This document shows, one piece after another, positions 1 through 16,168 of a stretch of 16,337 nt of DNA. A program made the translations under genes and the position numbers. This DNA is from Nanobdellota archaeon (GTDB lineage: Archaea; Nanobdellota; Nanobdellia; Woesearchaeales; JAHWHD01): positions 1 through 16,337 of the forward strand of contig JAYENX010000017.1 of the NCBI GenBank assembly GCA_034722435.1, in the 5' to 3' direction. The notes under the pieces were generated by a model. That model did not search any database and was not told the origin of the DNA. It saw only the letters and a list, made by a program, of their open reading frames with translations. Each line of letters opens with the position of its first letter. Position 1 is the stretch's first letter.

Positions 1-44
1 AATATACCTTGTGCAAAGTACTTCTATACTACAGTTTCATAAAA

Positions 45-52
45 TATATAAA
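45..52 (+). promoter_or_regulatory. Archaeal TATA box (TATATAAA) for a probable leaderless transcript of 77..781
   Basis: TATATAAA ends 25 nt before the ATG at 77; the same geometry recurs at several other genes in the window. Confidence 0.6.
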
Positions 53-76
53 TCCTGAAACTTATTTTCATATATA

Positions 77-781
77 ATGTTAGAGTTAGTCTATAGTCCG
101 CAATGGTTTTATGGTATTGACATCTTATTTGAATTTATCAACGTTATAGCAGCTCTTCTAATTGCATTTTTTAGTTATAAAATCTATAAATACACCAAAG
201 ATCGGCATTGTTTATATTTCGGATTATCATTTCTAGCAATCTCTTTAGCATTTATTTCTAAAATTCTTACAAACTTTCAAATATATTTTAATGTACTACG
301 ACAATCAAAAGTCATAGACCAGGCATTATTAACTTTAACAACACACAGAAACTTCAGTTTTTTTGTAACAGGATACTTTTTTCATAGAGTTTTTTTTCTT
401 ATGGCTTTAGTAGGAATATTTTTTATAGTTTGTAAATACGATAAAAAATTGCTCATACTTTTTGCATACTTTATTGCAATTATAACTGCTTTTAGTACAT
501 CTGAATATTTTATATTTCATGTCACTACTTCAATCATGCTAGGTTACATTTTCTACCATTACTACTTAAATTACAAATACAATCCAACCAAAAACACATT
601 TTTAGTATCATTTGGATTTTTCCTAATCCTTATAAGTCAGATAATATTTATTAATATTATACTTGGTGTGGAGAGTTATGTTGTTGCACAAATTATTCAA
701 GTGATTGGTTATGTAACTTTACTTTATGCTTACATCAGAATAAATAAAAATGACAAGAAGAACAAAGCTAGACATCATTAA
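77..781 (+). CDS. Polytopic membrane protein (about 7 hydrophobic segments), possible sensor; function unknown
   Basis: Repeated ~20-aa hydrophobic, aromatic-rich stretches with short polar loops; TATA box upstream; overlaps the next gene by 32 nt. Confidence 0.75.
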   Translation: MLELVYSPQWFYGIDILFEFINVIAALLIAFFSYKIYKYTKDRHCLYFGLSFLAISLAFISKILTNFQIYFNVLRQSKVIDQALLTLTTHRNFSFFVTGYFFHRVFFLMALVGIFFIVCKYDKKLLILFAYFIAIITAFSTSEYFIFHVTTSIMLGYIFYHYYLNYKYNPTKNTFLVSFGFFLILISQIIFINIILGVESYVVAQIIQVIGYVTLLYAYIRINKNDKKNKARHH

Positions 782-1022
782 TGATATGTTGGTGTCTATG
801 CGAGAAAAAGGCGGAAAGATTAAACCTACTCATCTTATGTATAAGGCTAATCTTAGCCATAAACTTCTTAATACTTATCTTGATGATCTTGTAAGTAATG
901 AGATGGTTACAGAAATAAAAAGTAAAGAAAATTATACCTATTTAATCATCACAGATAAAGGTCTTGAATTTTTGACAGAGTTTCAAAAGATGAAAGAGTT
1001 CCAGAAGAGTTTCGGGATTTAA
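750..1022 (+). CDS. Archaeal winged-helix transcriptional regulator (COG3432/HTH_45-like)
   Basis: RRTKLDII.DML...KPTHLMYKANLS...YL..L...Y.IT.KG.EFL pattern; 90 aa. Confidence 0.85.
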   Translation: MTRRTKLDIINDMLVSMREKGGKIKPTHLMYKANLSHKLLNTYLDDLVSNEMVTEIKSKENYTYLIITDKGLEFLTEFQKMKEFQKSFGI

Positions 1023-1042
1023 TTCAACATAATTCAATAATC

Positions 1043-1050
1043 TTTATAAA
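1043..1050 (+). promoter_or_regulatory. TATA box (TTTATAAA) for 1074..1796
   Basis: Ends 24 nt before the ATG at 1074. Confidence 0.6.
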
Positions 1051-1073
1051 ACTCTTTAATCATATTCTAAAGT

Positions 1074-1796
1074 ATGATACTCAAAGGATTTGAAATAGTG
1101 GACCTCTCTCTATATCACAAAGAATCTAAAACTTTAATCATCTCAGATATCCATATGGGCTACGAAGAAGCTCTTAATAGGCAAGGTATTTTAATACCTA
1201 GACATCAATACGTTTCTACATTTAAACGTCTAGAATTAATTCTAAACAAAGTAGAAGGTCTTGAAACTATAATAATCAATGGAGACTTAAAACACGAGTT
1301 TGGCAAAATATCGGAAACTGAATGGAGGCATACTTTAAAAATACTCGACCTTCTTTCAAAACACTGTAAAAATATAATTTTAATCAAAGGGAATCATGAC
1401 ACTATTTTAGACCCTATAGCAAAAAAACGTAATTTGGAATTTAAAGAATTCCATACAATTAACGATATTTATATTTGTCATGGTCATGTCATTCCAAACA
1501 ATTCAGAATTCAAAATAGCCAAGATAATCATTATTGGCCATGAACATCCTGCAATTTCTTTAGTTGACAATGCAAGAGTTGAAACCTTCAAATGCTTTCT
1601 TCTAGGAAAATACAAAAAACAATCATTAATAGTTCTACCTTCTTTCAATCTTGTAACAGAAGGCACTAACATTCTTAATGAAGACCTTCTAAGTCCTTTT
1701 TTAAAACAGAATCTAAATAATTTTAATGTATATATAGTCTCGGATAAAGTCTATGATTTTGGCAAAGTCAAGAATCTTATGAAATTAGTTAATTAA
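1074..1796 (+). CDS. Calcineurin-like metallophosphoesterase (COG1407-like)
   Basis: Metal-binding motifs in order: SDIHMG, NGDLKH, GNHD, HGH, GHEHP. Confidence 0.9.
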   Translation: MILKGFEIVDLSLYHKESKTLIISDIHMGYEEALNRQGILIPRHQYVSTFKRLELILNKVEGLETIIINGDLKHEFGKISETEWRHTLKILDLLSKHCKNIILIKGNHDTILDPIAKKRNLEFKEFHTINDIYICHGHVIPNNSEFKIAKIIIIGHEHPAISLVDNARVETFKCFLLGKYKKQSLIVLPSFNLVTEGTNILNEDLLSPFLKQNLNNFNVYIVSDKVYDFGKVKNLMKLVN

Positions 1797-2481
1797 CAAT
1801 CTTAACATTATCAATAAATTTGTTCAATATTTCTTTGAATTCATCTAACTTATATAATGGGTACGGATTAATATTTTTTAAGGATTCATCAATCATATCT
1901 TCTGTACTCCTGAATTGCTGTAAAGTATATGTTTTACACCCTTTAAGCCATTTACCGATTTCTGTTATTTCTTTTTCAGTAATCATTCCAGGAACAACGG
2001 TAGTTCTAAACTCAGAATTAATTCCGCTGGTTTTAATCAACTGAACACTTTCATTTATTCTTTCAATGTTAATATCAACACCTGTAACTCTGTTATATTT
2101 TTCAGGACTTGACTTAATATCCATTGCAATATGATCAACTAACTTTTTATCTATCAACTGTTTAAGAACTTCTGGAAAATATCCGTTAGTATCAATCTTG
2201 ACTAAAAAACCAAGACTTTTTAATCGAGACATAAATTCTATAATTCCTTTATTCATTAAAGGTTCTCCTCCTGTGATACATATTGCAGAAATATTTCTTT
2301 TTCTTTCAATTAAACTTTGGATAACTTTTTCTTCATCAACACTTTCAACTTTATTAAATACTAACAGAGGATTATGACAAAATCCGCACTTAAAATTGCA
2401 CCCTCCTAAAAACAATGTACTGCACATATGTTTAGGATAATCTATCAATGAAGTTTTCTTAACGCCTTTTATTTCAACCAT
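1789..2481 (-). CDS. nrdG: Anaerobic ribonucleoside-triphosphate reductase activating enzyme (radical SAM); start at 2481 preferred, 2499 possible
   Basis: CNFKCGFC (CxxxCxxC), ITGGEP, IDTNG and MDIK motifs; last gene of the nrdD operon. Confidence 0.9.
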   Translation of the reverse strand: MVEIKGVKKTSLIDYPKHMCSTLFLGGCNFKCGFCHNPLLVFNKVESVDEEKVIQSLIERKRNISAICITGGEPLMNKGIIEFMSRLKSLGFLVKIDTNGYFPEVLKQLIDKKLVDHIAMDIKSSPEKYNRVTGVDINIERINESVQLIKTSGINSEFRTTVVPGMITEKEITEIGKWLKGCKTYTLQQFRSTEDMIDESLKNINPYPLYKLDEFKEILNKFIDNVKIVN

Positions 2482-2514
2482 TTTTTCATATAAGAACATA
2501 ATTTAAAATAAAAT

Positions 2515-2745
2515 TTAAATAAATCTTTTAATATTTTCAACAGAGTTTGCTCTTCCTACCTCTTTTTCATCATCAAAAATTATAAACGTGGGAACTCCTG
2601 TGACATTATACTTTCTTGCTTCGTCTAATCCTTCAGGAGTACCTGCATCAACAAACTTGACTTCAATATCGAGACTTTTAACAAAATCCTTAATCTCAGG
2701 ACATTTAGGACAACTTTGTGTTGTAAATAATTTAAATGTTTTCAT
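2515..2745 (-). CDS. Thioredoxin/glutaredoxin-fold redoxin (NrdH-like)
   Basis: CPKC active site, GVPT cis-Pro motif, 76 aa; SD AGGTGA 6 nt before the ATG. Confidence 0.85.
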   Translation of the reverse strand: MKTFKLFTTQSCPKCPEIKDFVKSLDIEVKFVDAGTPEGLDEARKYNVTGVPTFIIFDDEKEVGRANSVENIKRFI

Positions 2746-2757
2746 GAATTTTCACCT

Positions 2758-2943
2758 TTAATTCGCAGGAGCTTGAGTTAAGCATGTTGATTCAGTTTTA
2801 AACTTATCATTACACTTAAACTCATTTTCGCAATAAACCTTTCTTTCAAAAAATTCTTGTTTTTTACCATCATTAAATTGTTGCACTGGTCTGTAATATC
2901 CTACTACTCTTGTAAACACTTCACATTTAATTACCTTTTTCAT
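2758..2943 (-). CDS. Stand-alone glycyl-radical (C-terminal) segment of class III RNR
   Basis: EVFTRVVGYYRPVQQFNDGKKQEFFER matches the NrdD C-terminal RxxGY motif (Gly15, nt 2899-2901); own SD GAGGTGA and ATG 2 nt after the nrdD stop. Confidence 0.85.
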   Translation of the reverse strand: MKKVIKCEVFTRVVGYYRPVQQFNDGKKQEFFERKVYCENEFKCNDKFKTESTCLTQAPAN

Positions 2944-2945
2944 TT

Positions 2946-4973
2946 TTAATTCACCTCTATTTTTTGTTTTACTTCAACACCATATTTGTTAAGATCTTCC
3001 TCGGAATGTTCATGAGGACATTCCCAATGTTCTCCCGATATGTATCCGTGTACCGGACATACACTAAACGTCGGAGTTATTGAAAAGTACGGGAGTCTAT
3101 AATTCTGGCACACTTTCTTAACAAGTTCCCTCGCAGTTTGCCAATCAGATATTCTTTCACCTATAAATCCATGGAGAACAGTTCCCCCTGAGTAAAGCGC
3201 TTGTAATTCATCTTGATGATCTAAAGCTTCAAAAACATCATTAGTATAGTCTACCGGTAAATACGTTGAGTTTGTATAATACGGGACTGAATTAGTTCCT
3301 GCAGTTAGAATATCTGGATAATTCTTTCTGTCGTGCTTTGCAAGCCTATAACTTACTCCTTCGGCAGGCGTAGCTTCTAAATTGTAAATGTGTCCTGTTT
3401 CTTCTTGAATTTCTCCCAATTTATCTCTCATAAATTTAAGAACTTCAACAGCAAACTCTTTACCTTTTTTAGTACCTATATCATTTTCCTTACCTAAAAA
3501 GTTCATGCAGCATTCATTCATACCGTTCAAACCTATTGTAGAAAAATGATGATCCAAATTTGCGAGGTACCGTTTCGTATACGGTAACAACCCTTGTCTC
3601 ATGTTCTTATTAACTTCCTTTCTTTTTATTTCAAGAGATTCCTTTGCAAGATCCATTAATTCTCCCAATCTCTTCAAAAATTCTTCTTTTGTTTTATATT
3701 TATAACCTAACTGCGGCATGTTAATTGTTACAACACCTAGACTTCCAGTCTGTTCTCCTGCACCAAATATCCCTCCCGTTTTCTGTACTAATTCTTTAAC
3801 ATTTAACTGTAACCTGCAACACATACTCCTTACGTCGCCCGGTTTTAAAGAACTATTAACAAAATTTTGAAAGTACGGAATACCAAATTTCGCAGTCATC
3901 TCGAATAACATTTGTGCATTTTCAGAGTCCCAATCAAAATCTTTAGTTATATTGTATGTGGGTATTGGGAACGTAAATATTCTACCATCCGCATCTCCCT
4001 CCATCATTATTTCAAGGAACGCTTTATTGATTAGATCGAGTTCTTTTTGAAACTCTCCATATCCTACATCTAATTCTTTTCCGGCAACAATAACTTTTTG
4101 ATCTTTCATATCTTCGGGTACAACCCAATCAAAAGTTATATTTGTGAACGGTACTTGATTTCCCCATCTGCTTGTTTGGTTAATTCCAAATATGAACTCT
4201 TGCAAACTTTGTTTAACTTCTAAATATGATAATTTATCGTAGTGCACTATTGGTGCAAGATATGTGTCAAAACTTGAAAATGCTTGCGCTCCCGCCCATT
4301 CATTTTGTAGTGTTCCAAAAAAGTTAACTATCTGTCCAAGGGCGGCATTAAAATGTTTTGCAGGTTTTGCAGCAACTCTTCCTGCAACTCCATTAAATCC
4401 TACTTGTAATAACTGTTTTAAAGACCAACCTGCACAATAGCCTGCGAAGGTTCCAATACTTAAATCATGTATGTGGAATTCAGAATTTCTATGTGCTTTT
4501 GCCACGTTTTTAGGATAAATATTTTTTAATGTATATTCGGCAATTATTGCTCCTGAGATATGTGCTTGTAAACCTGAAATGGCATATGAAGTATTACTAT
4601 TTTCTTTCACTCTCCAATCATTTTTTTGAACATAACCATCAACAACTCCCGCTATTCTATCCAGGAATGCTTTTTCATCCCTCATATTATTTCTTTTCTG
4701 TCTGTAAAGTATATATGCTTTAGCAGTTTTTGCATGTTCATTTTTAATAAGAGTTCTCTCTACAATGTCCTGAACTTCTTCAACTGTGGGAATCTCTTTC
4801 ACAAATTTTTGTTCAATTTCATCAATAACTAAATCAGCCAATTTTTCAGAAAGAATTTTATCTTTACCGCCTACAGATTTAGCAGATCTCCATATAGCCT
4901 CGCTTATTTTATCAGGATCAAACTTAACAATATTTCCGTCTCTTTTTTTAATTCGCCTTATAATCTTAATCAC
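2946..4973 (-). CDS. nrdD: Class III (anaerobic) ribonucleotide reductase catalytic subunit with N-terminal ATP-cone, lacking the glycyl-radical C-terminus
   Basis: IKKRDG ATP-cone, HIHDL, QNEWAGAQ, SMCCRL finger loop, NLEATPAEG, YSGGTVLH, CPVHG; GTG start overlaps the nrdR TGA; no RxxGY in this ORF. Confidence 0.95.
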   Translation of the reverse strand: MIKIIRRIKKRDGNIVKFDPDKISEAIWRSAKSVGGKDKILSEKLADLVIDEIEQKFVKEIPTVEEVQDIVERTLIKNEHAKTAKAYILYRQKRNNMRDEKAFLDRIAGVVDGYVQKNDWRVKENSNTSYAISGLQAHISGAIIAEYTLKNIYPKNVAKAHRNSEFHIHDLSIGTFAGYCAGWSLKQLLQVGFNGVAGRVAAKPAKHFNAALGQIVNFFGTLQNEWAGAQAFSSFDTYLAPIVHYDKLSYLEVKQSLQEFIFGINQTSRWGNQVPFTNITFDWVVPEDMKDQKVIVAGKELDVGYGEFQKELDLINKAFLEIMMEGDADGRIFTFPIPTYNITKDFDWDSENAQMLFEMTAKFGIPYFQNFVNSSLKPGDVRSMCCRLQLNVKELVQKTGGIFGAGEQTGSLGVVTINMPQLGYKYKTKEEFLKRLGELMDLAKESLEIKRKEVNKNMRQGLLPYTKRYLANLDHHFSTIGLNGMNECCMNFLGKENDIGTKKGKEFAVEVLKFMRDKLGEIQEETGHIYNLEATPAEGVSYRLAKHDRKNYPDILTAGTNSVPYYTNSTYLPVDYTNDVFEALDHQDELQALYSGGTVLHGFIGERISDWQTARELVKKVCQNYRLPYFSITPTFSVCPVHGYISGEHWECPHEHSEEDLNKYGVEVKQKIEVN

Positions 4974-5422
4974 CTATTTTCTATTTTTCTTATTTCTTCA
5001 GCAAACTCGCTTAAATCTTCAAACGATTTATAGACTGAAGCAAATCTTATGTATGCAACAGCATCTAATTTTTTCAATCTGTTCATTACAAGAGTTCCGA
5101 TATACTTACTTTGTACTTCGGGTGATTCTTTACCTTTAATTTTGAGTTCAACATCGCTTACAAGTTTATCAACTTCTTCTGAATTAACATTTCTTTTCTG
5201 TACGGCCATTAAAACGCCTTTCTTCAATTTTTCTCTATTAAAAGGCTCCCTTTTTCCGCCTATCTTAACTACTGTTAAATCAGCCATCTCAATTCTTTCA
5301 TATGTTGTAAACCTTTTTTCGCACTTAAGACACTCTCTTCGTCTTCTTGTAACTTCGTAATCACTAGTCTCCCTTTTATCTACAACTTTCGTTTCATCCG
5401 ATAAGCAATATGGGCATTTCAT
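4970..5422 (-). CDS. nrdR: Transcriptional repressor NrdR; start corrected to ATG 5422 (MKCPYC)
   Basis: CPYC/CLKC zinc ribbon, RRRREC, RFTTYER, ATP-cone, YIRFASVY. Confidence 0.95.
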   Translation of the reverse strand: MKCPYCLSDETKVVDKRETSDYEVTRRRRECLKCEKRFTTYERIEMADLTVVKIGGKREPFNREKLKKGVLMAVQKRNVNSEEVDKLVSDVELKIKGKESPEVQSKYIGTLVMNRLKKLDAVAYIRFASVYKSFEDLSEFAEEIRKIENR

Positions 5423-5432
5423 TTTCAAGTGA

Positions 5433-5448
5433 TAACAATATGTTGTGG
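5433..5448. promoter_or_regulatory. NrdR box 1
   Basis: taacaatatgttgtgg matches the consensus acaCwAtATaTwGtgt at 12/16. Confidence 0.75.
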
Positions 5449-5463
5449 GTATTTTCAAAAACC

Positions 5464-5479
5464 CCACAATATCTTGTGT
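5464..5479. promoter_or_regulatory. NrdR box 2
   Basis: ccacaatatcttgtgt matches the consensus at 14/16; starts 31 bp from box 1. Confidence 0.85.
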
Positions 5480-5497
5480 TTATTCTTTATTTCTTCC

Positions 5498-5505
5498 TTT
5501 AAATA
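5498..5505 (-). promoter_or_regulatory. TATA box (TATTTAAA) of the nrdR-nrdD operon
   Basis: Minus strand reads cataaaag-TATTTAAA (purine-rich BRE-like plus TATA); predicted start near 5473. Confidence 0.55.
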
Positions 5506-5568
5506 CTTTTATGTTTTGTAGTGTTATAGAAAATAATTAACACCTTAGAAATTAGTATGAAAATAATT

Positions 5569-6423
5569 TTATTTTAAGAATTCAATCACTTGACTAGGGA
5601 TTTCTGCAACCTTTACACCAACTTCATTAAACGCTTTAATCTTAGATTCTGCAGTTCCTGTGTTACCTGAAATAACTGCACCTGCATGACCCATCTTTTT
5701 ACCTTTTGGTGCTGTTCTACCCCCAATATATGCTACTACAGGTTTTGTAACATTAACTTTGATAAATGCGGCGGCTCTTTCTTCCATATCACCGCCTATT
5801 TCTCCAATTAAGACTATTTTTTCCGTATTTTCATCTTTCTCAAACAAATTTAGAGCTTTAATAAAATCAAACCCTATAACTGGGTCTCCTCCTATACCTA
5901 TGGCAGTACTCTGTCCTAAACCCGCTTTAGTAAGATCATTCACAATTTCATAAGTCAGTGTTCCGGATTTAGATACAACTCCAATTTTACCTTTCTTAAA
6001 AATATGCCCGGGCATTATTCCTATTTTACATTCATCTGGAGTTATTAGTCCTGGACAATTAGGACCTATTACGATTTTATTATTTTCTTTAGCAAATTTC
6101 ATCACTTTTATAGCGTCATGTACAGGAATATTTTCCGTGATAATTATAACATTTAAATTATTAGACATTGCCTCAATTGCTGCATCTTTAGCGAATCTTG
6201 CAGGAACAAATAGTACAGAAAAATCAGCCTCATATTCTTTAAGTGCATCTTTAATCGAGTTAAACACGGGGATTCCTTCAACATTTTCTCCAACCTTTCC
6301 TGGAGTAACACCTGCCACAATATTGGTCCCATATTTTTTCATTAAACTTGTATGAAACCTTCCTTGTTTACCTGTTATTCCCTGCACAATAAGTTTTGTA
6401 TCTTTATTGATTAAAATTGACAT
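5569..6423 (-). CDS. sucD: Succinyl-CoA synthetase alpha subunit
   Basis: QGITGKQG CoA-binding motif, IGPNCPG, SKSGTL, GIGGD, MGHAGA phospho-His loop; own TATA-like TTAATAAA at 6446-6453. Confidence 0.95.
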   Translation of the reverse strand: MSILINKDTKLIVQGITGKQGRFHTSLMKKYGTNIVAGVTPGKVGENVEGIPVFNSIKDALKEYEADFSVLFVPARFAKDAAIEAMSNNLNVIIITENIPVHDAIKVMKFAKENNKIVIGPNCPGLITPDECKIGIMPGHIFKKGKIGVVSKSGTLTYEIVNDLTKAGLGQSTAIGIGGDPVIGFDFIKALNLFEKDENTEKIVLIGEIGGDMEERAAAFIKVNVTKPVVAYIGGRTAPKGKKMGHAGAVISGNTGTAESKIKAFNEVGVKVAEIPSQVIEFLK

Positions 6424-6449
6424 AAAATCTGAGAATTCGTAGCTATTTA

Positions 6450-7004
6450 TTAAATTTTGTAATTACTTACAATATCACAAATATTTTCGCTGGACATGGT
6501 TGATTTATGGTGCATATGTCCTTTTATTTGACCCGTTCTTTCAGTTATAGGTCTCATATAAGCAGCACAATCTTTATGCATTCCGTCATTTCCTGACCCT
6601 TTATTAGGTTCATAAAAATCATTAAGACTTTCTCTTAACTTTCCAACACTGAAAGACACATAATCATCTAAAGAAGTTGCATTAACTTCTCCATTAAAAA
6701 GAATAATTCCTTCTTTTTTTTTTTTGTTGAATAAAATATTTAATTCTGAAAACGGAAATGTAACATTATTCATTAAATCTCTCAAATTACTTACTGTACG
6801 TCTCAATTCCTGTATTGAATAACCATTTTTTCTTAACGTTTCGGCAACTTTTAGAAGAACAAGGTCTCCAAATGTATAGAGTCTGTATTTACCTCTCCTT
6901 CTATAGCTAGGTATTATAAATCTACTTTTATCCCAGTATTGAATCTGTCTATATGTAATATCTACAAATTGCCTAACGTCTTTAGGTGTAAAAAATGACT
7001 TCAT
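6450..7004 (-). CDS. MerR-family HTH regulator; start at 7004 preferred over 7010
   Basis: ITYRQIQYWD...P.....GKYRLYTFGDL..LK....LR..G.SI.E; TATTTAAA (7028-7035) is 24 nt from ATG 7004. Confidence 0.85.
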   Translation of the reverse strand: MKSFFTPKDVRQFVDITYRQIQYWDKSRFIIPSYRRRGKYRLYTFGDLVLLKVAETLRKNGYSIQELRRTVSNLRDLMNNVTFPFSELNILFNKKKKEGIILFNGEVNATSLDDYVSFSVGKLRESLNDFYEPNKGSGNDGMHKDCAAYMRPITERTGQIKGHMHHKSTMSSENICDIVSNYKI

Positions 7005-7075
7005 AAGCATATAGAATATATGGCTATTTTAAATAACTTTGTCTTCATAAATATATATGGAGCAAACTATAGCTT

Positions 7076-7630
7076 CTACTTCACTTTACTGGGTTTCCAT
7101 TCTTTTTTAAGTATCCTGTATGTAATTGAATCATAATACTTGCCTTCAATGAACATATGATCCTTAAGAATCGCCTCTTTTTTAGCTCCTAATTTCTTGA
7201 TTGCTTTTTGAGACCTTTTATTTTTACTTAATGTACCTAAGATTATCTTATGCAATTTTAATTTTTTAAATGCATAATTTAACAACAATTTTTTAGATTC
7301 AATATTATAACCTTTCCCCCAATGATTTACACCAAGCCAAGTACCTGTCTCTGCCCTTTTATGTTGCCAATTTATACTGTGAAGATTTATACAACCAATA
7401 ACCTCTTTAGTTTCATTTAGAACTATTGCAAACCTTATCGCGCACGGTTTTTTTTCTCTTCGTCCAACCCACGTTTTCAAAAAGTCCTTTGCATGTTTTT
7501 TCTTGTACGGCCAAGGAAGGCCATAAATCATTTTACAAATTCTGGGATCATTAATATTTCTATAAATGTCGTCAGCATCAGACATTCTATGATTTCTTAA
7601 TGTTATATGTTCTCCTTTCAACACAATCAT
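7076..7630 (-). CDS. GNAT N-acetyltransferase, RimJ/RimL family
   Basis: LR...MSDA..IY, AETGTWL...HWGKGY..E...LL.YAF..L.LHKI, N.RS..A..KLG...E. Confidence 0.9.
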   Translation of the reverse strand: MIVLKGEHITLRNHRMSDADDIYRNINDPRICKMIYGLPWPYKKKHAKDFLKTWVGRREKKPCAIRFAIVLNETKEVIGCINLHSINWQHKRAETGTWLGVNHWGKGYNIESKKLLLNYAFKKLKLHKIILGTLSKNKRSQKAIKKLGAKKEAILKDHMFIEGKYYDSITYRILKKEWKPSKVK

Positions 7631-7688
7631 AAACAGAATTAATATAAATTCAATTTATAAATCCTTTGTCAATTGTATATAATGCCTT

Positions 7689-7759
7689 GGCTGTGTAGCC
7701 CAGTGAACGCGTCATTGATTGTAATATTATGAGGTAACATTTATAATTTATTTAATCCA
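7689..7759 (+). pseudogene. Possible decayed tRNA gene (Thr-TGT or Tyr-GTA-like)
   Basis: tRNA-like 5' end GGCTGTG-TA-GCCC-AG, TTGTAAT at the anticodon-loop position, GAGGT variable loop, TTATAAT at the T-loop position; stems largely do not pair. Confidence 0.3.
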
Positions 7760-7788
7760 AAAAATAAATGTTGTGAACGATAGGCATT

Positions 7789-8853
7789 CTATGCGCCAGT
7801 CATCTCGATTATTTTCTTAGCACAATCTTCCATAGAATCTAGACTTTCAATTCCTGCCTGCTTTAATATTTGTAAACCCTCTTTTTCATTCGTACCTATC
7901 ATTCTTACAACAACAGGAACTTCTACATTATTATTGTTCACATAATTCACAAGCCCTTGAGCAATCTCGTCGCATCGCGTTATTCCGCCAAATATATTTA
8001 TAAAAACTCCTTTAGGATTTTTCATGAGCACAATCTCAAGACTTCTTTCCATCTTTTCCACAGAAGCACCTCCGCCAACATCTAAAAAATTGGCAGGTTT
8101 TCCTCCAAAATACTTCAAGACATCTAAGGTGCTCATCACTAAACCTGCACCATTACCAATAATTGCAATATCGCCGTCAAGCTCAACATATTGCAGACCA
8201 TATTCCGTAGCTTTTTTTTCAATCTCTGTTAACTCTTCTTCTTTCTTAAATTCTGGATGTTTGTAAAGTGCATTATCATCAAGTATAACTTTAGAATCTC
8301 CTGCAATATATTTTCCTTCGGATAAAAATAACGGATTTATTTCAACTAGTTCGCAGTCAAGTTCTGTCATCAACTTATGCAAATTCATAATAATTTCAAT
8401 AATCTTTTCATTATTTATCTTTTTATTTATATCCTCTACAGCGTCTTCAATCTTAAAAAAGTTGATCTTAACAATTTGATCTTTTGGAACTGATTCAATA
8501 TCGACTCCCCCTGCTTCAGAGAATATCAATGTTAAACATTTATCTGCTCGATTTATTGTAATAGAAAGGTATAGCTCTTTTTCAATATCTACTTTATCTT
8601 CAATGAGTAACTCTTTAACTGGAAGTTCTTTAATTTTAGAATTAAATAATTCTGTACAAATTTCTTTAATATTTGCAGCACTTGCAACTTTGATACCTCC
8701 TGCTTTTCCTCTTCCCCCTACAAGAAGTTGTACTTTTACAATTGCTTCTTTTTCATCATGAAGTTCATCAATACTAGAAATAACATAACCCTCTGGAACC
8801 TTAATTCCATATTTTCTGAATAAATCTTTTCCTTGGTATTCTTTTAATTTCAT
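7789..8853 (-). CDS. sucC: Succinyl-CoA synthetase beta subunit (ATP-grasp); start at 8853 in an ATGA overlap with korC
   Basis: LKEYQGK, GGRGKAGG, EINP, GNGAGL, NFLDVGGG, NIFGGITRCD. Confidence 0.95.
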   Translation of the reverse strand: MKLKEYQGKDLFRKYGIKVPEGYVISSIDELHDEKEAIVKVQLLVGGRGKAGGIKVASAANIKEICTELFNSKIKELPVKELLIEDKVDIEKELYLSITINRADKCLTLIFSEAGGVDIESVPKDQIVKINFFKIEDAVEDINKKINNEKIIEIIMNLHKLMTELDCELVEINPLFLSEGKYIAGDSKVILDDNALYKHPEFKKEEELTEIEKKATEYGLQYVELDGDIAIIGNGAGLVMSTLDVLKYFGGKPANFLDVGGGASVEKMERSLEIVLMKNPKGVFINIFGGITRCDEIAQGLVNYVNNNNVEVPVVVRMIGTNEKEGLQILKQAGIESLDSMEDCAKKIIEMTGA

Positions 8854-9356
8854 TCTTTCCAACTATATCCATACATTATGGCTTCAACATTCTTCTCAAT
8901 ATATCTTTCAGGTAAATATTTTTGAAGATTAATTTGTGTTATGTCTATGTCCATCTTTTTTAACAATTGACCAAGGGCAATCATGTTAATGAAAATCTGA
9001 CTACCAAACTTTTCAGATGCTAAAGTCATAAATGGCATTGCAATTAATTCTTCTGTATTAAATGTTTGTTTTTCATCTTCTTTTTTGAACAACGATTTTT
9101 CAACAATCATTTTTTTAGCAGAAAATCCTTGAACTTCGGATAACATCAAAAGCATATCAGCAGTGTCAATAATTGGATTATCAATTTTTTCATTTGCATA
9201 TATTAAATTAGCAGTTATATTCCCTCCACGAACTGCAGCATCATAACTGTAAGTTAAAGTAACGTACTTATCAAGTTGAGTTAATATTCTTGCAAGCACA
9301 TTTGCTAATAATTTAACTCCTTGTCCGCCTTCCCCAACCATTATTATTTTACGCAT
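8850..9356 (-). CDS. korC: 2-oxoacid:ferredoxin oxidoreductase gamma subunit
   Basis: GEGGQGV, Y...VRGG, NMIALG. Confidence 0.85.
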   Translation of the reverse strand: MRKIIMVGEGGQGVKLLANVLARILTQLDKYVTLTYSYDAAVRGGNITANLIYANEKIDNPIIDTADMLLMLSEVQGFSAKKMIVEKSLFKKEDEKQTFNTEELIAMPFMTLASEKFGSQIFINMIALGQLLKKMDIDITQINLQKYLPERYIEKNVEAIMYGYSWKE

Positions 9357-10086
9357 TATTTACAATACCTAGTTCATTATCTTTTAATTTTTCTTCAGGT
9401 TTACTATTAACTTTAAAAGAATCTCTGAAATTCTTAAGCATGTCAAAAGGAGTTTTAAAACCTATCCTTCTTCCGTAATTAGATATACAATTTGTTTTCA
9501 CTTCAACAAAACTAAACCCGGGCCATTTGATTGCTTCTTCAATACATTTACTCAAATGTTCAACGTGCCATACAGTTGTTCTTGCATAGAAATGTTTCCT
9601 GTTAGACGTGATTATTCCTTGTATATTTATTTGTTCAAATTCTGCTCCTTTTGGACTTGTCATTGTAGGTACATCTTTTGGTGTTAATGGGCTCATTTGA
9701 CCACCTGTCATTCCATATATTTCATTATTTGCGCATATGATTGTTAAGTTCGTATTACGTCGAGCACAATGTATGAGATGATTACCTCCTATACCTGTTA
9801 GATCTCCATCTCCAGAAAATACAATCACGTTCATATCATCATTTGCCCTTTTTACACCTTCAGCAATAGGTATGGCCCTTCCATGAATTCCATTGACGCT
9901 ATCAACATTAAAATATCCTGATCCTCTGGCAGTACAACCAATTCCTGAAACTACTGTTGTTTTATTTTTTGGAAGTTTAAGGTTATCAAATACTTTAGCC
10001 GTAGTCTTTAGCAAAATACCTAACCCGCACCCTGCACACCATACTGTTGGCAGTTTATCCATTTTAAGATAATCTTCATAAGTCAT
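9349..10086 (-). CDS. korB: 2-oxoacid:ferredoxin oxidoreductase beta subunit (TPP-binding)
   Basis: WCAGCG, SGIGC, HGRA, GDGD...GGNH, NNEIYGMTGGQ.SP. Confidence 0.92.
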   Translation of the reverse strand: MTYEDYLKMDKLPTVWCAGCGLGILLKTTAKVFDNLKLPKNKTTVVSGIGCTARGSGYFNVDSVNGIHGRAIPIAEGVKRANDDMNVIVFSGDGDLTGIGGNHLIHCARRNTNLTIICANNEIYGMTGGQMSPLTPKDVPTMTSPKGAEFEQINIQGIITSNRKHFYARTTVWHVEHLSKCIEEAIKWPGFSFVEVKTNCISNYGRRIGFKTPFDMLKNFRDSFKVNSKPEEKLKDNELGIVNNA

Positions 10087-11087
10087 TCTAACTGCCTCTT
10101 TATTTCTTCTAAACTTATGTGTCCGCCATTACAATTGATAAATTCAACTTTTTGTTTTAATACTCTTTCAACTTCCTGGACATATTGACCTTCGTTCATT
10201 TCAATTACCACAATTCTTTTGTATTTTTTAGCGATATCTTTAAGTTCATTAAGGAAAGGCCATATTCTTATAGGTCTAAAAATTGAATATTCTGTTTTCA
10301 GAGGCATAATAACTCTTGATGTAATCCCGTAAGCAATTATTAATGTATCTGACTTTTCATTTTTAATATACTCATAAAAATTATAATTATCTGCAGCTGC
10401 TTTTATTCTATCTTTATACTCTTTCATCCATACTTTAAAATAAGCAATATCTTTTGTTTTTGGAACTCCATCTTTATTCAATATACCTGCAATATGTCCT
10501 GCCCCCTCTCCTAAAGCTTTCTTTGTTCGAGGAACAACTCTTAGATTAATTTTATCTAAATCTACAGATTCATACATCAATCCTATAAAGCCGTCAGTCA
10601 ATAATATCACAGGACTTAAACTATCCTCGGCTGCATTAAAGGCATGCTGAGTATATTCATAACATTCTTGTACAGAATTAGGATAAAACACTATTGGAAA
10701 ATAATCTCCATGACTTCCCCATTTAACTTGCATAATATCTCCTTGGTTAGGCAATGTTGGCATTCCTGTTGAAGGTCCCACTCTTTGTACATCAACAATA
10801 ACTAACGGCGTTTTCGTCATATGTGCGAAACCTATAGCTTCTTGTTTTAATGAGAACCCGGGTCCTGACGTGGAAGTCATTGCTTTTACTCCAGCCATTG
10901 ATGCCCCGATTGCAATGTTTATCCCCGCTATTTCATCTTCAGCATGCAAAAACCCTATCTTTTTTTTAGCCATGTAATGCATAATTTCAGAAGCAGGAGT
11001 TATAGGATAGGCTGAGAAGAATTTACAACCTGCTGCAATTGCTCCTTCAACAACTGCATGATTCCCTTGTAATAATTTTTTACTCAT
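10083..11087 (-). CDS. korA: 2-oxoacid:ferredoxin oxidoreductase alpha subunit
   Basis: GNHA...GA, YPITPASE, EDE, TSGPGFSL, QRVGPSTGMPT, EMNEGQ. Confidence 0.92.
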   Translation of the reverse strand: MSKKLLQGNHAVVEGAIAAGCKFFSAYPITPASEIMHYMAKKKIGFLHAEDEIAGINIAIGASMAGVKAMTSTSGPGFSLKQEAIGFAHMTKTPLVIVDVQRVGPSTGMPTLPNQGDIMQVKWGSHGDYFPIVFYPNSVQECYEYTQHAFNAAEDSLSPVILLTDGFIGLMYESVDLDKINLRVVPRTKKALGEGAGHIAGILNKDGVPKTKDIAYFKVWMKEYKDRIKAAADNYNFYEYIKNEKSDTLIIAYGITSRVIMPLKTEYSIFRPIRIWPFLNELKDIAKKYKRIVVIEMNEGQYVQEVERVLKQKVEFINCNGGHISLEEIKRQLE

Positions 11088-11259
11088 CTTTTATTTTCAA
11101 AGCTATATCTGGACAGAATTTTTCACACATTCTACATTTAATACATTTTCCGTCCATGATTAATTTTCCATCCTTCCATTTAAGAATCTTCTGTGGACAT
11201 ACATCTACACATATATTACATTTTTTACAACGTTTTTCATTCCACTCTAAGCTTACCAT
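11080..11259 (-). CDS. korD: 2-oxoacid:ferredoxin oxidoreductase delta subunit, 2x[4Fe-4S] ferredoxin; start at ATG 11259 preferred
   Basis: CKKCNICVDVCP and CIKCRMCEKFCP; TTTAAATA (11284-11291) with upstream GAAAACC lies 25 nt from ATG 11259. Confidence 0.9.
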   Translation of the reverse strand: MVSLEWNEKRCKKCNICVDVCPQKILKWKDGKLIMDGKCIKCRMCEKFCPDIALKIKDE

Positions 11260-11283
11260 ATAACACAACTTTAAAACCCTTAT

Positions 11284-11291
11284 TATTTAAA
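11284..11291 (-). promoter_or_regulatory. BRE/TATA of the korDABC-sucC operon
   Basis: Minus strand reads gaaaacc-TTTAAATA. Confidence 0.6.
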
Positions 11292-11392
11292 GGTTTTCGT
11301 ATGCTTCTCTATATCTAGTTTTACATTAGATACTTAAGTTCAATTTAAATTCAACCCAAATATATATAAATACATAATTCTCTGTTACAAAC

Positions 11393-11926
11393 ATGTTTTT
11401 TCATAATGCGATTAAAAAACTTCATGAATCTGATGACTTTAAGAAATGGAGAAAAGAGAATAGTAAACACTTTCTAAGTACAGGATTTATAGTGGTAGAG
11501 AAGGCTCGTGAATATCCTTGGATGATAGGATACTTTGATACAAAGACTGATAAGATTTCTTCATTTGTGGTTTCAGATAAAGAATGTTACTTTGAAAAGG
11601 TGGACGAAGTTTTTAAGAAACCTGAGGATACGGTCTTTGAGTTAAATCTTGAGAAGGTTAAGATTGATGTGGAAAAAGTGTTAGACCTTATTGAAACATA
11701 CTGTAAAGAAAAATACAATCATGAGACAATTATAAAAACTATCCTTATTATTCAGAATCTTCCTAAGCACGGAAATGTTTGGAATGTAACTCTAATAACT
11801 CAATCTTTTAACGCTATTAATATGAAAATAAACTCTGAGGATGGTAAACTCCTTGAAGATAAATGTTCTTCATTGTTAAGTTATGGCGCTCCTGATACTT
11901 TGGCAGATGCCAAGAATAATGTTTAA
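11393..11926 (+). CDS. Hypothetical soluble protein
   Basis: 177-aa ORF with TATATAAA (11363-11370) 23 nt upstream; no motif I can assign. Confidence 0.75.
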   Translation: MFFHNAIKKLHESDDFKKWRKENSKHFLSTGFIVVEKAREYPWMIGYFDTKTDKISSFVVSDKECYFEKVDEVFKKPEDTVFELNLEKVKIDVEKVLDLIETYCKEKYNHETIIKTILIIQNLPKHGNVWNVTLITQSFNAINMKINSEDGKLLEDKCSSLLSYGAPDTLADAKNNV

Positions 11927-11996
11927 TATATTTTACATTCAATATAAGTTTATATATTAGTTAATTAATAAAAAATTATAAATTGCTGGGGATTGA

Positions 11997-12061
11997 GGTG
12001 TTTAGATAAAGCTGGTGCAGAATTATATTCTGCACATCACCAGCTTAAAAGGGGGTGTTTA
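11997..12061. repeat. GC-rich hairpin (12009-12046) bracketed by 8-bp direct repeats GGTGTTTA (11997-12004, 12054-12061)
   Basis: aagctggtgcagaat-tat-attctgcac[atcac]cagctt forms a 15-bp stem with a 5-nt bulge. Confidence 0.75.
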
Positions 12062-12064
12062 AAT

Positions 12065-12865
12065 TTGGCAAAACTTCTAGATGTGAAAGAGGTAAAAGAA
12101 TTTTCTTTTGAAGAATTATTAACAAGACTTAGAAAAGTACCATTGAATCCGCAGGCCACAATAAAAGAATCTGACGGATCTTTAGTTTATATATATAAAA
12201 ATGCAACATTTGAATTAAAAACTCTTGAACCTTCTGCAGTAAACCAAAAATTGTTTACTCCGCAACCAATTGTGTACCAGGAAAGATTGGATTTTTTAAA
12301 TGACCTTCGAACTAAATTTAAAGAGCAAGGTTATGATGATCCTTTACAACTTACAAAATGTTATGATTTTGTAAGTGTTTATCTTGATGATGACGGTAAT
12401 GAGAAAGAAGAACTCTGGACACTTATGCCTCCATTGGTTGAAGTTAACACTTATCAAATGTTTGCTGAGCAACTGCAAGGATTTTTGGATTATTCTAATC
12501 ATCAGAAAAATCTTCCCTCTGAGCATAATATAAACTCAGAAATTGAATCTAAACTTTACAAAGACGTTCAGATTGGTATTACTTTTCCTATTATCTGTGA
12601 CGGTTTTCATAGAGTTGCTGCAGCTCTTGAACTTAACATTCCTATAACTGTGTTATATGTGGAAGGTTCAGATCAACGTTTTCCTTATTATGGAACACCT
12701 AGACCTGTAGCCAAGTTACACAAGCTCCAATCAAGAACTGATAAATCTGATAATTTGGTTGGTAAAAAAGAATATGTTATAAGTAAACCTAACCATAAAT
12801 CTCTTTATAGATTTTTTCCGAGTGCAGGCATACACTGTGGCGGTATACGTCCAAAAGCAAAATGA
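12065..12865 (+). CDS. Uncharacterised protein with a ParB/sulfiredoxin-like motif; start probably TTG 12065 (ORF track gives TTG 11993)
   Basis: PPLVE and IICDGFHRVAAA (DGxHR-type); SD GGGGGTG at 12051-12057; ATGA overlap with the next gene. Confidence 0.65.
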   Translation: MAKLLDVKEVKEFSFEELLTRLRKVPLNPQATIKESDGSLVYIYKNATFELKTLEPSAVNQKLFTPQPIVYQERLDFLNDLRTKFKEQGYDDPLQLTKCYDFVSVYLDDDGNEKEELWTLMPPLVEVNTYQMFAEQLQGFLDYSNHQKNLPSEHNINSEIESKLYKDVQIGITFPIICDGFHRVAAALELNIPITVLYVEGSDQRFPYYGTPRPVAKLHKLQSRTDKSDNLVGKKEYVISKPNHKSLYRFFPSAGIHCGGIRPKAK

Positions 12866-14277
12866 AATTCGAACCACAACATCACCAAACCAAATTAAAG
12901 GTAATCAATCCTGAAGGTTGTGTAGGTGTTGTAACTTTGTGGAGTCCTGTTTTATGGGTTTCTGAAAAATTCACAGAGTTCGGTATTGACCTTTCAAATA
13001 ATTCCAAGATTGTTTGTTTTGGTCAACTTTATGGGGACGGTCTGGGTAGTATGCTCAGAAATCTTCTTTATAATCCTCAGATTAAACATCTTATAGTTTG
13101 TGGTGATAACCGTTCTAATTCTTATGAAGATCTTGTTGCGTTTTTTGAAGCAGGTGTTGAAGATTATGATTGGAATGGAATCCCTATGAAACGAATTATT
13201 GGGAGAGAAAGGTTATTGGATAAAGATATGTCACCTGGCTTATTCACAGAACCTCTTAAAATTACTTACCTTGGTTCGCTTATACAAGATAATTTTTCAG
13301 TCAAATTAAAGCAAGTTCTTGCTTCAATAAACCTGTGCAATAAAGATTCTGAAAGAAAAGATATTCCTGTCCCTGAACTGAATGTTCAATCATATCCTAG
13401 TGAGGCAAGAAGTCATGTAATTTTTGGAAAAAAACCTGTTGAAGCGTGGATAAATCTTGTTCATAGAATATTTAATTTTGGAAAACTTATTCATCTTAGG
13501 AAAGGTCCAAGATGCGAGCTTCAGAATGTTAAAGTCATTATTCAAAATCCTGCTGATTATACTGAAGAAGAACTTGTTAAGTTTGGTTTCAGTATTACAA
13601 AGGTTAAAGCCTACCAAGAAAAAATTTTAAAAAAAGATTTAGAAGAAGGTTCGGCATATACTTATGGTAACAGAATTGGCGCACATTTTGGAATTGATTG
13701 TATCCAAGCTGTCGTTGATAAATTGAATCTAAATCCTAAAAGTAGACGCGCATATATTACTCTCTGGGACCCTGCTAATGATCTTACTACTCCGAAAAGT
13801 GTACCTTGTTTTTTAAGTATCTACTTCAGAAAATTTGAGGACAAATTAACAATGACTGCTACTTTCAGGTCTCATAATGGACTTGATGCTTGGCTTATGA
13901 ACCTTTTCGGATTAAAAGCTATTCTTGATACTGTTGCCAAAGCCACAAACATAGTTGCAGGACCTATCACTGTATTTTCTCATTCGATGACTATCAATCC
14001 TGACAAGTACGAATACGCAAAAACTCTTGCAGATAATAGAACTGTTAAGTACCTTTTTCATAATGAACATGATGCTGCAGGATACAGCGAATACGAAGTT
14101 GAAAGTGGCGAAATGGTTGTTAAATTTTTTTCAGACGGTATCCAGATAAGAGAATATCGTGGGACTAATTCCGAATTGTTAAGAAAAGAAATCGAGAGAG
14201 ATTGCGCAATTTTAAGCATAGGTCATGCTCTTTATGTAGGTCACATGATTGCAAAACTCGAGCAACAACTAAAATAA
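12862..14277 (+). CDS. Fusion of an MtrA-like N-terminal domain, a thymidylate synthase (ThyA-fold) domain and a DUF4346-like C-terminal domain
   Basis: N-term VGVVTLWS...GQLYG.G...RNLLYNPQIKHLIVCG; middle YTYGNR, SRRA...WDP, PC316, FRS; C-term D.AGY...RG...GHALYVG...KLE. Confidence 0.8.
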   Translation: MKFEPQHHQTKLKVINPEGCVGVVTLWSPVLWVSEKFTEFGIDLSNNSKIVCFGQLYGDGLGSMLRNLLYNPQIKHLIVCGDNRSNSYEDLVAFFEAGVEDYDWNGIPMKRIIGRERLLDKDMSPGLFTEPLKITYLGSLIQDNFSVKLKQVLASINLCNKDSERKDIPVPELNVQSYPSEARSHVIFGKKPVEAWINLVHRIFNFGKLIHLRKGPRCELQNVKVIIQNPADYTEEELVKFGFSITKVKAYQEKILKKDLEEGSAYTYGNRIGAHFGIDCIQAVVDKLNLNPKSRRAYITLWDPANDLTTPKSVPCFLSIYFRKFEDKLTMTATFRSHNGLDAWLMNLFGLKAILDTVAKATNIVAGPITVFSHSMTINPDKYEYAKTLADNRTVKYLFHNEHDAAGYSEYEVESGEMVVKFFSDGIQIREYRGTNSELLRKEIERDCAILSIGHALYVGHMIAKLEQQLK

Positions 14278-14904
14278 TTTTTCTATCTCATAAATTTTGT
14301 TTATGTTAATATCTGCAAATTCATCTTTTTCATTTGATACAAGTATTGCAGTTATATTTTTAAGATCCTCTGTTTTTTTAATAGGATAAATATCTCCTAC
14401 TGGGCTATCTCCTATATATGCCAATTCTTCAGTCTTTAGACCTGAAATATTAACCCAGTTATAATAAGGTGTCACTTCTTTTTTGAGAGCTGCAAATATT
14501 TGTATCTCAAACATTTCCACTGGAATCCCTAAACTTTTTAAAACATTTAATGAAGATATTTTATCTCTTGCAGTTATAAGGTCAAGAATAATACTTTTCT
14601 TCTTTAAATTATTAAGAATATTTAACAATTTTTCATCTTTTAAAATAAAAGGGCTCACATCAGTTTCTTGTAAGGCTTCCCATAATACTGCTTTAGGATC
14701 ATCTATACCCATACTTTTTAGAGTTTTAGATGTGCTACTTGTTTCTATTTTTATTCTTTCAAATTCTTCTTTTACCAAATTATAAGGTTTATTTATTCTT
14801 TTTGAAACTTTCTTACATATTGTAGCTCTTATAGCTTCTTGCATTTCAATACTCTGCTTATACAACGTATTATCTAAATCAAAACCAATTCTTTTTATTT
14901 TCAT
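14269..14904 (-). CDS. HAD-superfamily phosphatase, possible nucleotidase; start at ATG 14904 preferred
   Basis: Motif I GFDLDNTLY, motif II LITA, motif IV YIGDS...DI; TATATATG at 14926-14933. Confidence 0.88.
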   Translation of the reverse strand: MKIKRIGFDLDNTLYKQSIEMQEAIRATICKKVSKRINKPYNLVKEEFERIKIETSSTSKTLKSMGIDDPKAVLWEALQETDVSPFILKDEKLLNILNNLKKKSIILDLITARDKISSLNVLKSLGIPVEMFEIQIFAALKKEVTPYYNWVNISGLKTEELAYIGDSPVGDIYPIKKTEDLKNITAILVSNEKDEFADININKIYEIEKLF

Positions 14905-15019
14905 AGTACCGTCTAAATTTCTTGCCATATATATGTTTTTTTGTTTCACTGGTCAAGTGGTCACAAAATGTTTATTAAGATTAAAAATCTTCTAAAATTT
15001 AGAAAAGAGGTGATTTATT

Positions 15020-15109
15020 ATGAAAGAGGAAAAAGTGAAAAATGTCAGCTACAATGACCAGAAAAAGTGTAGAAAACTCGGAGAATTTTTTTCTTCTAAT
15101 GAAGATTAA
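15020..15109 (+). CDS. Small 29-aa ORF absent from the ORF track: MKEEKVKNVSYNDQKKCRKLGEFFSSNED
   Basis: SD GAGGTGA at 15007-15013, ATG 15020, TAA 15107-15109. Confidence 0.5.
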   Translation: MKEEKVKNVSYNDQKKCRKLGEFFSSNED

Positions 15110-16020: not shown

Positions 16021-16168
16021 AAAAAGACGAAATAAGAACTTCTTTATTAATGTTTTTCAATATTTAAAATATAGTTTAGTTTAGACAAATATTTAAACAA
16101 CGGAACTTTTTAATTTGTTGATTAGTGATTACTAATGCTGATTTTTGACTTAATTAACGTGATAAAAG

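Follow-up and report, generated by a model that had tools for sequence, protein, structure and literature searches.

Class III ribonucleotide reductase (RNR) is the textbook one-chain glycyl-radical enzyme, and the DNA analysed here appears to encode it as two chains. This stretch, referred to as the window, is 16,337 nucleotides (nt) long and comprises positions 1-16,337 of the forward strand of contig JAYENX010000017.1 from a Nanobdellota archaeon (GCA_034722435.1). Five minus-strand genes running from nrdR to nrdG very probably form one operon, coding for a two-chain class III RNR. According to the listing of open reading frames (ORFs) and the sequence, they stand in the compact order nrdR, nrdD-large, an ORF of 61 amino acids (aa), a thioredoxin-like gene and nrdG, and Pfam and NCBIfam searches back every one of these assignments. 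As read from the genes, the RNR consists of two polypeptides, and it is the 61-aa chain that bears the radical glycine. The split is in all likelihood an inherited and selected gene arrangement, common to a clade of DPANN archaea, Thermodesulfobacteriota, other bacteria and phages.

The division of the enzyme is precise. The large, catalytic chain of 675 aa (2946..4973, minus strand; matched by PF13597, NF006126 and PF03477) ends ...KQKIEVN before a TAA stop, and the RVxGY glycyl-radical motif is absent from it. The small ORF (2758..2943, minus strand), recognised by a match to the tail of PF13597, opens at ATG 2943, 2 nt past the nrdD stop and in a different frame, and reads MKKVIKCEVFTRVVGYYRPVQQFNDGKKQEF.... 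The PF13597 profile (NRDD, 562 positions) is divided between the two ORFs without loss or overlap, with positions 1-532 on the large ORF (584 bits) and 533-562 on the small one (34.4 bits, cut-off 26.2). NF006126 (684 positions) matches the large ORF over 3-660 (1052.5 bits, cut-off 548) and the small ORF over 650-682. The large chain is laid out as an ATP-cone (residues 7-95) followed by the NRDD barrel (124-660), which bears the finger loop M384-C385-C386-R387; C385, C386 and R387 are invariant across 32 split orthologues, and align with the CCR of the Thermotoga maritima structure 4COI. The small ORF carries the canonical glycyl-radical loop, ...KCEVFTRVVGYYRPVQQFNDGKKQEF..., in which R12-V-V-G15-Y-Y-R-P identifies Gly15 of the small chain, at coordinates 2901-2899 (minus strand), as the radical glycine. 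The barrel, the finger-loop cysteine and the NrdG by which an NrdD is classified are all present, and the RVxGY expected on the same chain is found only when both chains are taken together. The small ORF also has a Shine-Dalgarno (SD) sequence of its own, GAGGTGA (2951..2957, minus strand), located 7 nt before ATG 2943 and falling within the last nrdD codons (Glu-Val-Asn). This is not background, as a comparable SD precedes only 2/19 of the larger ORFs in the window. The initial annotation of this DNA had described an NrdD lacking RxxGY and, 2 nt on in another frame, a 61-aa ORF with its own SD GAGGTGA, and the ORFs, the sequence and the PF13597 and NF006126 matches agree with it in every detail.

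Upstream of its ATG, the frame of the small ORF stays open over 10 codons, as part of a 71-aa stop-to-stop frame, and an A6 run lies there. Hence the obvious alternative to a real split was that a sequencing indel in the A-run had produced a spurious frameshift, or that a -1 ribosome shift there yields a one-piece NrdD. The small ORF was searched against 401 genomes of the same order, from which 60 loci were fetched and analysed by script alongside others from an earlier search; order- and class-level tallies include genomes flagged as unpublished (G001, G002, G122, G133, G206, G210, G335 and G374). A glycyl-radical tail was found in 123/401 of these genomes, and in about 51 (by hand count) it lies in a small open frame. 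The closest relative, the metagenome contig L001 (large chain 84% identical), encodes a pair of 675 aa and 62 aa with the junction TAAaATG, which has a 1-nt gap, another frame offset and no equivalent A-run. An independent assembly, Logan SRR7614767, has a pair of 675 aa and 60 aa; in all, the split is seen in three independent close-relative assemblies, whose junctions differ. At 48 loci besides the window, a full NrdD orthologue (49-84% identity) lies immediately upstream of a small ORF, which is separate and 38-171 aa long. The split junctions are either overlaps of 4 to 25 nt, ATGA being the commonest, or gaps of 0, 1, 2, 9-58, 128 or 200 nt; all three frame offsets occur, in-frame stops included, and the start is ATG in all but one. 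Almost all of these 48 loci have a GAGGTG-type SD 5-10 nt before the ATG, the large chain ends ...E-V-x, the translated SD, in 28/49, and the slippery run is not conserved. Given that relatives are split with differing junctions, frames and SDs of their own, the split in the window is not an indel or frameshift site, and an artefact or recoding event is highly improbable. The initial annotation had itself raised the prospects that reads might reveal an A-run indel fusing the ORFs, or that close relatives might all encode a fused NrdD: the former was not upheld by the comparison with L001, and close relatives are split too. Its statement that small NrdD-tail ORFs exist in other genomes was borne out by at least 7950 matching small proteins in the public protein collection, including some contig-end fragments, while the survey of nrdD loci for the same split and SD that it proposed produced the 48 further loci.

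A second dismissive account would treat the pair as a decaying pseudogene, in which the nrdD tail was lost by nonsense or frameshift mutation and its function is gone. The split itself is the only sign in favour of decay, together with the thought that DPANN symbionts might import deoxynucleosides. The small-ORF columns R12, V14, G15, R18, P19, N24, K27, E30 and R34 are invariant in 32 ORFs, as are the catalytic and radical-motif residues in general, and the ratio of nonsynonymous to synonymous change (pN/pS) in the small ORF is 0.04-0.33, with synonymous change near saturation and a value of 0.21 between the window and L001. These invariant columns and low ratios, which denote purifying selection, point to a selected two-gene arrangement. 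Moreover, the operon is intact, nrdG included, and encodes the only RNR found in the genome. Decay is therefore barely credible.

The split extends well beyond the order to which the window belongs. The small-ORF profile finds it in other orders of the same class, and the deposited names of such proteins include 'hypothetical protein [Candidatus Woesearchaeota archaeon]' and 'anaerobic ribonucleoside-triphosphate reductase [Candidatus Nanoarchaeia archaeon]'. In GTDB, sampled as one genome per species, the same junction type occurs in Caldimicrobium and Candidatus Thermodesulfobacterium syntrophicum (Thermodesulfobacteriota), Muiribacteriota, Aegiribacteria and Pacearchaeota; in these lineages the large chain ends ...CP-x-PH-[TS]-EE-x-L-x-K-[FY]-G... 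and the small one begins ...V-P-C-E-V-Y-S-R. It also occurs in a complete 95.7-kb phage genome, and a Hippea contig has a small-frame tail after the nrdD end, probably with a junction of this type too. The split recurs in a second NrdD subfamily (L084, L085, L087, L088, L090, L091, L092, L095 and L098), whose members are about 30% identical and in many cases have NrdR fused at the N-terminus. In that subfamily the first CxxC knuckle closes the large chain, and the second opens a small chain of 51-72 aa. Pfam resolves two fused relatives of 820 aa, L006 and L008, into an ATP-cone, NRDD and a C-terminal extension; they are not NrdR fusions. In a maximum-likelihood tree of 60 large chains, from which the glycyl-radical columns were removed, the split or fused label needs 8 changes, at least 6 of them forced by well-supported branches, and split and fused sister pairs are found, such as L042/L082 from one family. 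The sample contained nearly all the split loci and only 14 fused ones, which renders the proportions on the tree meaningless and leaves the count of changes meaningful. As judged from this tree, splits at the same linker arose or reverted several times.

Several side observations concern the same gene family. A large number of close NrdD homologues (P0128-P0277) span 1000-1900 aa and match in 2-5 separate stretches, which suggests that inteins or other large insertions are frequent in the NrdD clade of the window. A split intein or trans-splicing was considered for the window's pair and rejected, the halves being far too short: on the large chain only 19 residues follow the zinc site, and on the small one only 6 precede CEV. 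Two unpublished genomes from the same family or genus (L019 in G002 and L020 in G001) have three tandem one-piece NrdDs, 30% identical, and these two genomes do not carry the split NrdD type; the window operon may have been acquired laterally. In L099 (2971-3240, minus strand), a glycyl-radical-like small ORF has Trp at the position of the radical glycine (SRVVWYYSII), and may be a decayed or repurposed copy.

The cut always falls in or just past the second zinc knuckle. The C-terminus of fused relatives follows the pattern C-x2-H-G-Y ... C-P-x-C-x3-[TC]-E-V-Y-S-R-[VI]-V-G-Y. Across the 49 split loci, the two chains complement each other in the fourth putative zinc ligand: 14 large chains retain the CxxC, and none of their partner small chains (0/14) has a Cys five residues before the EV of EVYSR; 18 large chains have lost the fourth ligand, and 17/18 of their partners carry that Cys, with spacing as in the fused proteins. 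In the clade of the window, the large chain bears C-P-x-x-H, and the small chain is without such a Cys. Conservation marks out a probable zinc site, C639-x2-H642 ... C652-P-x2-H656 (3006..3059, minus strand), that is contained within the large chain; C639, H642, C652 and P653 are invariant or nearly so in the alignment of split orthologues, and a clade-typical tail of 19 residues, SEEDLNKYGVEVKQKIEVN, follows the site and closes the chain. With the putative ligands C639, H642, C652 and H656 all on the large chain, the small chain here would be held without a metal bridge. The zinc site would accordingly differ between lineages, lying wholly on the large chain in the clade of the window and bridging both chains in others.

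A structural proxy was provided by L041, which belongs to the clade of the window and has a large chain 68% identical to it. Its in-frame TAA-ATG junction was read through, and the product was folded as one chain with a 33-row alignment. The mean predicted local distance difference test score (pLDDT) was 86.4 and the predicted template modelling score 0.81; the pLDDT was 53 at the junction and 73-86 for 42 small-ORF residues. The model matches the Prevotella copri structure 8p2s_B over model residues 101-722 (Z 36.3, root-mean-square deviation 2.5 A), and superposes on T. maritima 4u3e (model residues 107-724) and phage T4 1h7b (133-706), with Z of 34-36 across solved NrdD structures. These superpositions extend through the glycyl-radical domains of the solved proteins. 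The model shows that the read-through pair would be compatible with the canonical NrdD fold. It is weak evidence for binding of the small chain, because AlphaFold has seen one-piece NrdD.

The split NrdD is the only RNR detected in the window genome, which is 94.5% complete and consists of 60 contigs. At that level of completeness, searches of the genome found neither a class I/II RNR large subunit, nor a second NrdD, full-length ones included, nor a second copy of the small gene, and the PFL-type glycyl-radical domain (PF01228) had no match anywhere in it. As regards the reductant, finger loops with two cysteines are associated with reduction of the thioredoxin type, and where Met comes first formate is possible as well (PMC9669993); the finger loop of the window is MCCR. 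The gene following the small ORF encodes a thioredoxin/glutaredoxin-like protein of 76 aa with a CPKC motif (2515..2745, minus strand; Pfam Thioredoxin_3, Thioredoxin and Glutaredoxin), and this protein is the probable reductant of the RNR. In the closest clade, the small radical chain has a C-terminal glutaredoxin/thioredoxin-like extension with a CxxC in L023 (2365-2835), L028, L034, L036 and L047 (144-171 aa), and in L063 (2689-3105; 139 aa). Pfam calls Glutaredoxin in the small chains of L023 and L063, and the thioredoxin-like protein of the window matches the L023 small chain with a BLASTP E of 5e-10. This fusion in relatives links the redox protein to the radical chain. Many NrdDs of Clostridia (L188-L262) are one-piece proteins with a similar C-terminal redox domain, which in the window is a separate gene.

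The tail of the small chain in the window contains Cys and is poorly conserved. Pairs of cysteines (CC, CxC or CxxC) are frequent in such weakly conserved tails, occurring in the window (2758-2830, minus strand) and in L024, L025, L043, L052, L056 and L067. They recall the C-terminal redox-shuttle cysteines of class I/II RNRs, which is pure speculation.

The remainder of the operon is consistent with a dedicated and regulated RNR locus. The repressor gene nrdR, encoding a zinc ribbon and an ATP-cone, is listed at 4970..5467 (minus strand; Zn_ribbon_NrdR 64.8 bits, ATP-cone 65 bits, TIGR00244 185.6 bits against a cut-off of 124.65). The listed ORF opens at GTG 5467 and its stop overlaps the nrdD start by 4 nt; the true start is likely to be ATG 5425 (MKCPYC...). 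Directly upstream of this probable start, at 5433..5479 (minus strand), direct reading reveals two palindromes of 16 bp, ACACAAGATATTGTGG (5479-5464) and CCACAACATATTGTTA (5448-5433), spaced 31 bp start to start. Both appear to resemble the NrdR-box consensus. They fit, and suggest, autoregulation of the nrdR-nrdD operon by NrdR. The radical-SAM activase gene nrdG (1789..2499, minus strand; TIGR02495, or NrdG2, 206.7 bits against a cut-off of 131.15; Radical_SAM and Fer4_12) encodes the cognate activase of NrdD, two genes downstream in the operon. The small ORF and the thioredoxin-like gene are separated by 12 nt, and the latter and nrdG by 15 nt.

A mechanism may be proposed from these components. 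The 675-aa chain would constitute a complete catalytic body, possessing an ATP-cone, a ten-stranded barrel, a double-cysteine finger loop and the zinc knuckles, and the 61-aa chain would be the detached glycyl-radical domain, translated from its own SD and ATG, and probably coupled to termination of the large chain. It would dock where a one-piece NrdD holds its C-terminal domain, placing Gly15 beside the finger-loop cysteines. NrdG and S-adenosylmethionine (SAM) would then generate the radical on Gly15, from which it would move to a finger-loop cysteine and start the reduction of nucleoside triphosphates. The adjacent thioredoxin-like protein would re-reduce the active site, the MCCR loop leaving formate as a possible alternative, and NrdR would repress the operon at high dATP.

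Some points weigh against this reading. The translation of the small ORF, its binding to the large chain and the formation of a radical on it are predictions from sequence and modelling, and the window genome is a draft assembled from metagenome data. The two frames would be joined by a -1 slip on the A-run CAAAAAAT, and a minor fused product may consequently be made. That the split NrdD is the sole RNR found does not prove it to be essential, because DPANN archaea may scavenge deoxynucleosides. Finally, the modelled fold is that of a read-through proxy from a 68%-identical relative, rather than that of the pair in the window.

Copies of the small gene that are not linked to nrdD bear on why the enzyme is split. 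Five such extra copies were found in relatives, in genomes with a split nrdD or, in the case of G102, at least an nrdD-type small frame. Four of the five lie within about 2 kb of oxidative-stress genes. The copy in L027 (2704-2835, minus strand) shares 4 nt with the stop of the gene for a Fur-family regulator and is upstream of three rubrerythrin genes, while that in L048 (2620-2826, plus strand) sits between a thioredoxin gene and genes for rubrerythrin and desulfoferrodoxin. The copy in L052 (2689-2817, minus strand) is ~0.6 kb upstream of the best peroxiredoxin gene of its genome, with a pentapeptide-repeat gene between them, and that in L055 (2686-2802, plus strand) is ~0.7 kb upstream of genes for peroxiredoxin, again the best in the genome, and ferritin. 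The fifth, in L051, adjoins a gene for a pyridoxal phosphate enzyme. The genomes with these orphan copies have only 1-6 rubrerythrin and 0-4 peroxiredoxin matches each, and a rough estimate puts the chance proximity to an oxidative-stress gene at ~2% per copy. Tandem pairs of ~80-100-aa ORFs, with a Cys-rich, zinc-ribbon-like head and an NrdD-type glycyl-radical tail, occur on the plus strand in L068 (2530-3086), L069 (2506-3092) and L073 (2557-3073). They are divergent from an AsnC-type regulator gene, with rubrerythrins near the pair in L073, and their genomes also have fused NrdDs. Among viral contigs, 51 of the 80 best matches are small frames (loci L103-L182), and many of the contigs carry a stand-alone NrdD-type glycyl-radical ORF of about 48-150 aa. 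The complete phage genome G598 (L117; 84.9 kb, direct terminal repeats, CheckV 100%) encodes two small glycyl-radical chains, and the catalytic part of NrdD is absent from it; seven further viral records, all incomplete, have the small gene only. Another complete phage genome, G600 (L172), has a split pair 1.4 kb apart, and the phage-like contig L002 has a 54-aa copy of the small gene.

Two explanations for the origin of the split have to be balanced. One, which we consider to have about an even chance of being right, is neutral fission: a stop and a restart are tolerated in the flexible stretch that joins the zinc knuckles to the glycyl-radical loop, splits come and go with no selective gain, and the chains reassemble into an ordinary enzyme. 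This suits the flipping between split and fused at least six times, with sister pairs in one family, as well as the shift of the split point by a few residues relative to the zinc ligands and the low pLDDT of the junction in the model. Furthermore, relatives carry the thioredoxin-like gene, and in the second subfamily nrdR, either as a fusion or as a free gene, implying that fusion and fission are common at this locus. However, neutral fission leaves the unlinked copies in oxidative-stress loci and the stand-alone phage genes unexplained, and the split is very frequent, being found in about 40% of carriers in the order, and spans domains of life.

The other is that the small chain acts as a renewable radical module, the 61-aa piece dissociating after oxygen has cut it at the glycine and being replaced by a fresh chain that NrdG activates, such that the 675-aa body survives. 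The initial annotation had put forward an exchangeable carrier of this kind, with which oxygen damage would cost 61 residues rather than some 730 (about 736 from the two chain lengths). This remains a tentative proposal, which we think rather unlikely to hold. There is a precedent in GrcA/YfiD and T4 Y06I, which serve PFL (PMC8683613), and in the clade of the window all four putative zinc ligands are on the large chain, which would leave the small chain free of a metal tether. The patterns of orphan and phage copies, namely the four of five unlinked copies near oxidative-stress genes, the tandem pairs beside an AsnC-type regulator with rubrerythrins in L073, and G598 and the seven incomplete viral records with the small gene only, match what a trans-acting renewable module would predict; this evidence is circumstantial and comes from other genomes. 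In the window itself, the small chain is the only glycyl-radical domain of its genome, and is hence a regular subunit rather than a spare, with neither a second copy nor a stress gene beside it. The tight translational coupling suggests synthesis in a 1:1 ratio with the large chain. In about one-third of split loci a zinc ligand seems to come from the small chain, arguing for a stable complex there. The orphans are also few (five), and come from related, non-independent genomes. For the window, neutral fission at a permissive linker is an explanation that does equally well as the renewable module. The wider form of the latter, in which the NrdD small chain is a renewable radical cofactor and the first case of a spare part serving any glycyl-radical enzyme besides PFL, with extra copies in Fur/PerR-type operons of some lineages and phage copies sustaining deoxynucleoside triphosphate synthesis in the host, is likewise more speculative than probable.

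The two-chain class III RNR is most similar to the one-piece NrdD and NrdG systems of the NF006126/PRK08270 type (T. maritima 4COI/4U3E, P. copri 8P23/8P2S and T4 1H78). It shares with them the ATP-cone, barrel, putative Cys/His zinc knuckles, RVxGY motif and adjacent NrdG, as well as the double-cysteine finger loop, which is MCCR here and CCR in T. maritima. It differs in that the last 30 profile positions, the radical glycine included, are on a separate 61-aa chain with its own ribosome-binding site. Furthermore, the large chain of the window has its clade-specific 19-residue tail, and some split relatives put the fourth zinc ligand on the small chain. The Escherichia coli protein GrcA/YfiD and the T4 protein Y06I are also small, free-standing glycyl-radical domains, presumably activated by the cognate radical-SAM activase, and the relatives of the NrdD small gene include unlinked and phage-borne copies. 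By contrast, the small chain of the window is of the NrdD type, with no PF01228 match, and is the sole radical domain rather than the backup of a full-length enzyme. The split class II RNR NrdJa/NrdJb similarly distributes a catalytic chain over two genes, with the zinc-finger C-terminal part on the second (PMC9669993), but its cofactor is adenosylcobalamin, and the detached part bears a reducing cysteine pair instead of the radical site. The thioredoxin-dependent class III RNR of Neisseria bacilliformis resembles that of the window in having a double-cysteine loop and a thioredoxin-family protein in the operon (PMC9669993), although the finger loop of the window starts with Met (MCCR).

No description of a split class III RNR was found in the searchable full-text literature, which does not cover subscription journals. 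The enzyme of the window appears to be a true two-chain form of a familiar one, which is common in sequence data although that literature does not describe it. To our knowledge, all solved structures and mechanistic work on class III RNR use the fused form. A natural two-chain form is consequently a ready system for studying the poorly understood exit of the radical domain from the barrel to the activase, and its return. Spare-part proteins are known for PFL only, and two papers leave it undecided whether any other glycyl-radical enzyme has them (Andorfer et al. 2021, PMC8683613; 2026 review, PMC13450708); the two-chain form makes this question, still open according to the 2026 review, testable. 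There are also consequences for annotation, as the small ORFs are deposited as hypothetical proteins or oddly short reductases, and the large ORFs may pass for truncated genes. Caldimicrobium, Thermodesulfobacterium and Hippea are cultured genera open to experiment, unlike the archaeon of the window.

Elsewhere in the window, genes at 12862-14277 (plus strand), 15106-16020 (minus strand) and 8850-11087 (minus strand) include neighbours with roles in nucleotide metabolism, among others. One product is thymidylate-synthase-like, 471 aa long, and has a pterin-binding DUF4346 tail; another shows a weak likeness to thymidylate kinase. The window also holds a three-gene 2-oxoacid:ferredoxin oxidoreductase and succinyl-CoA-synthetase-like genes.

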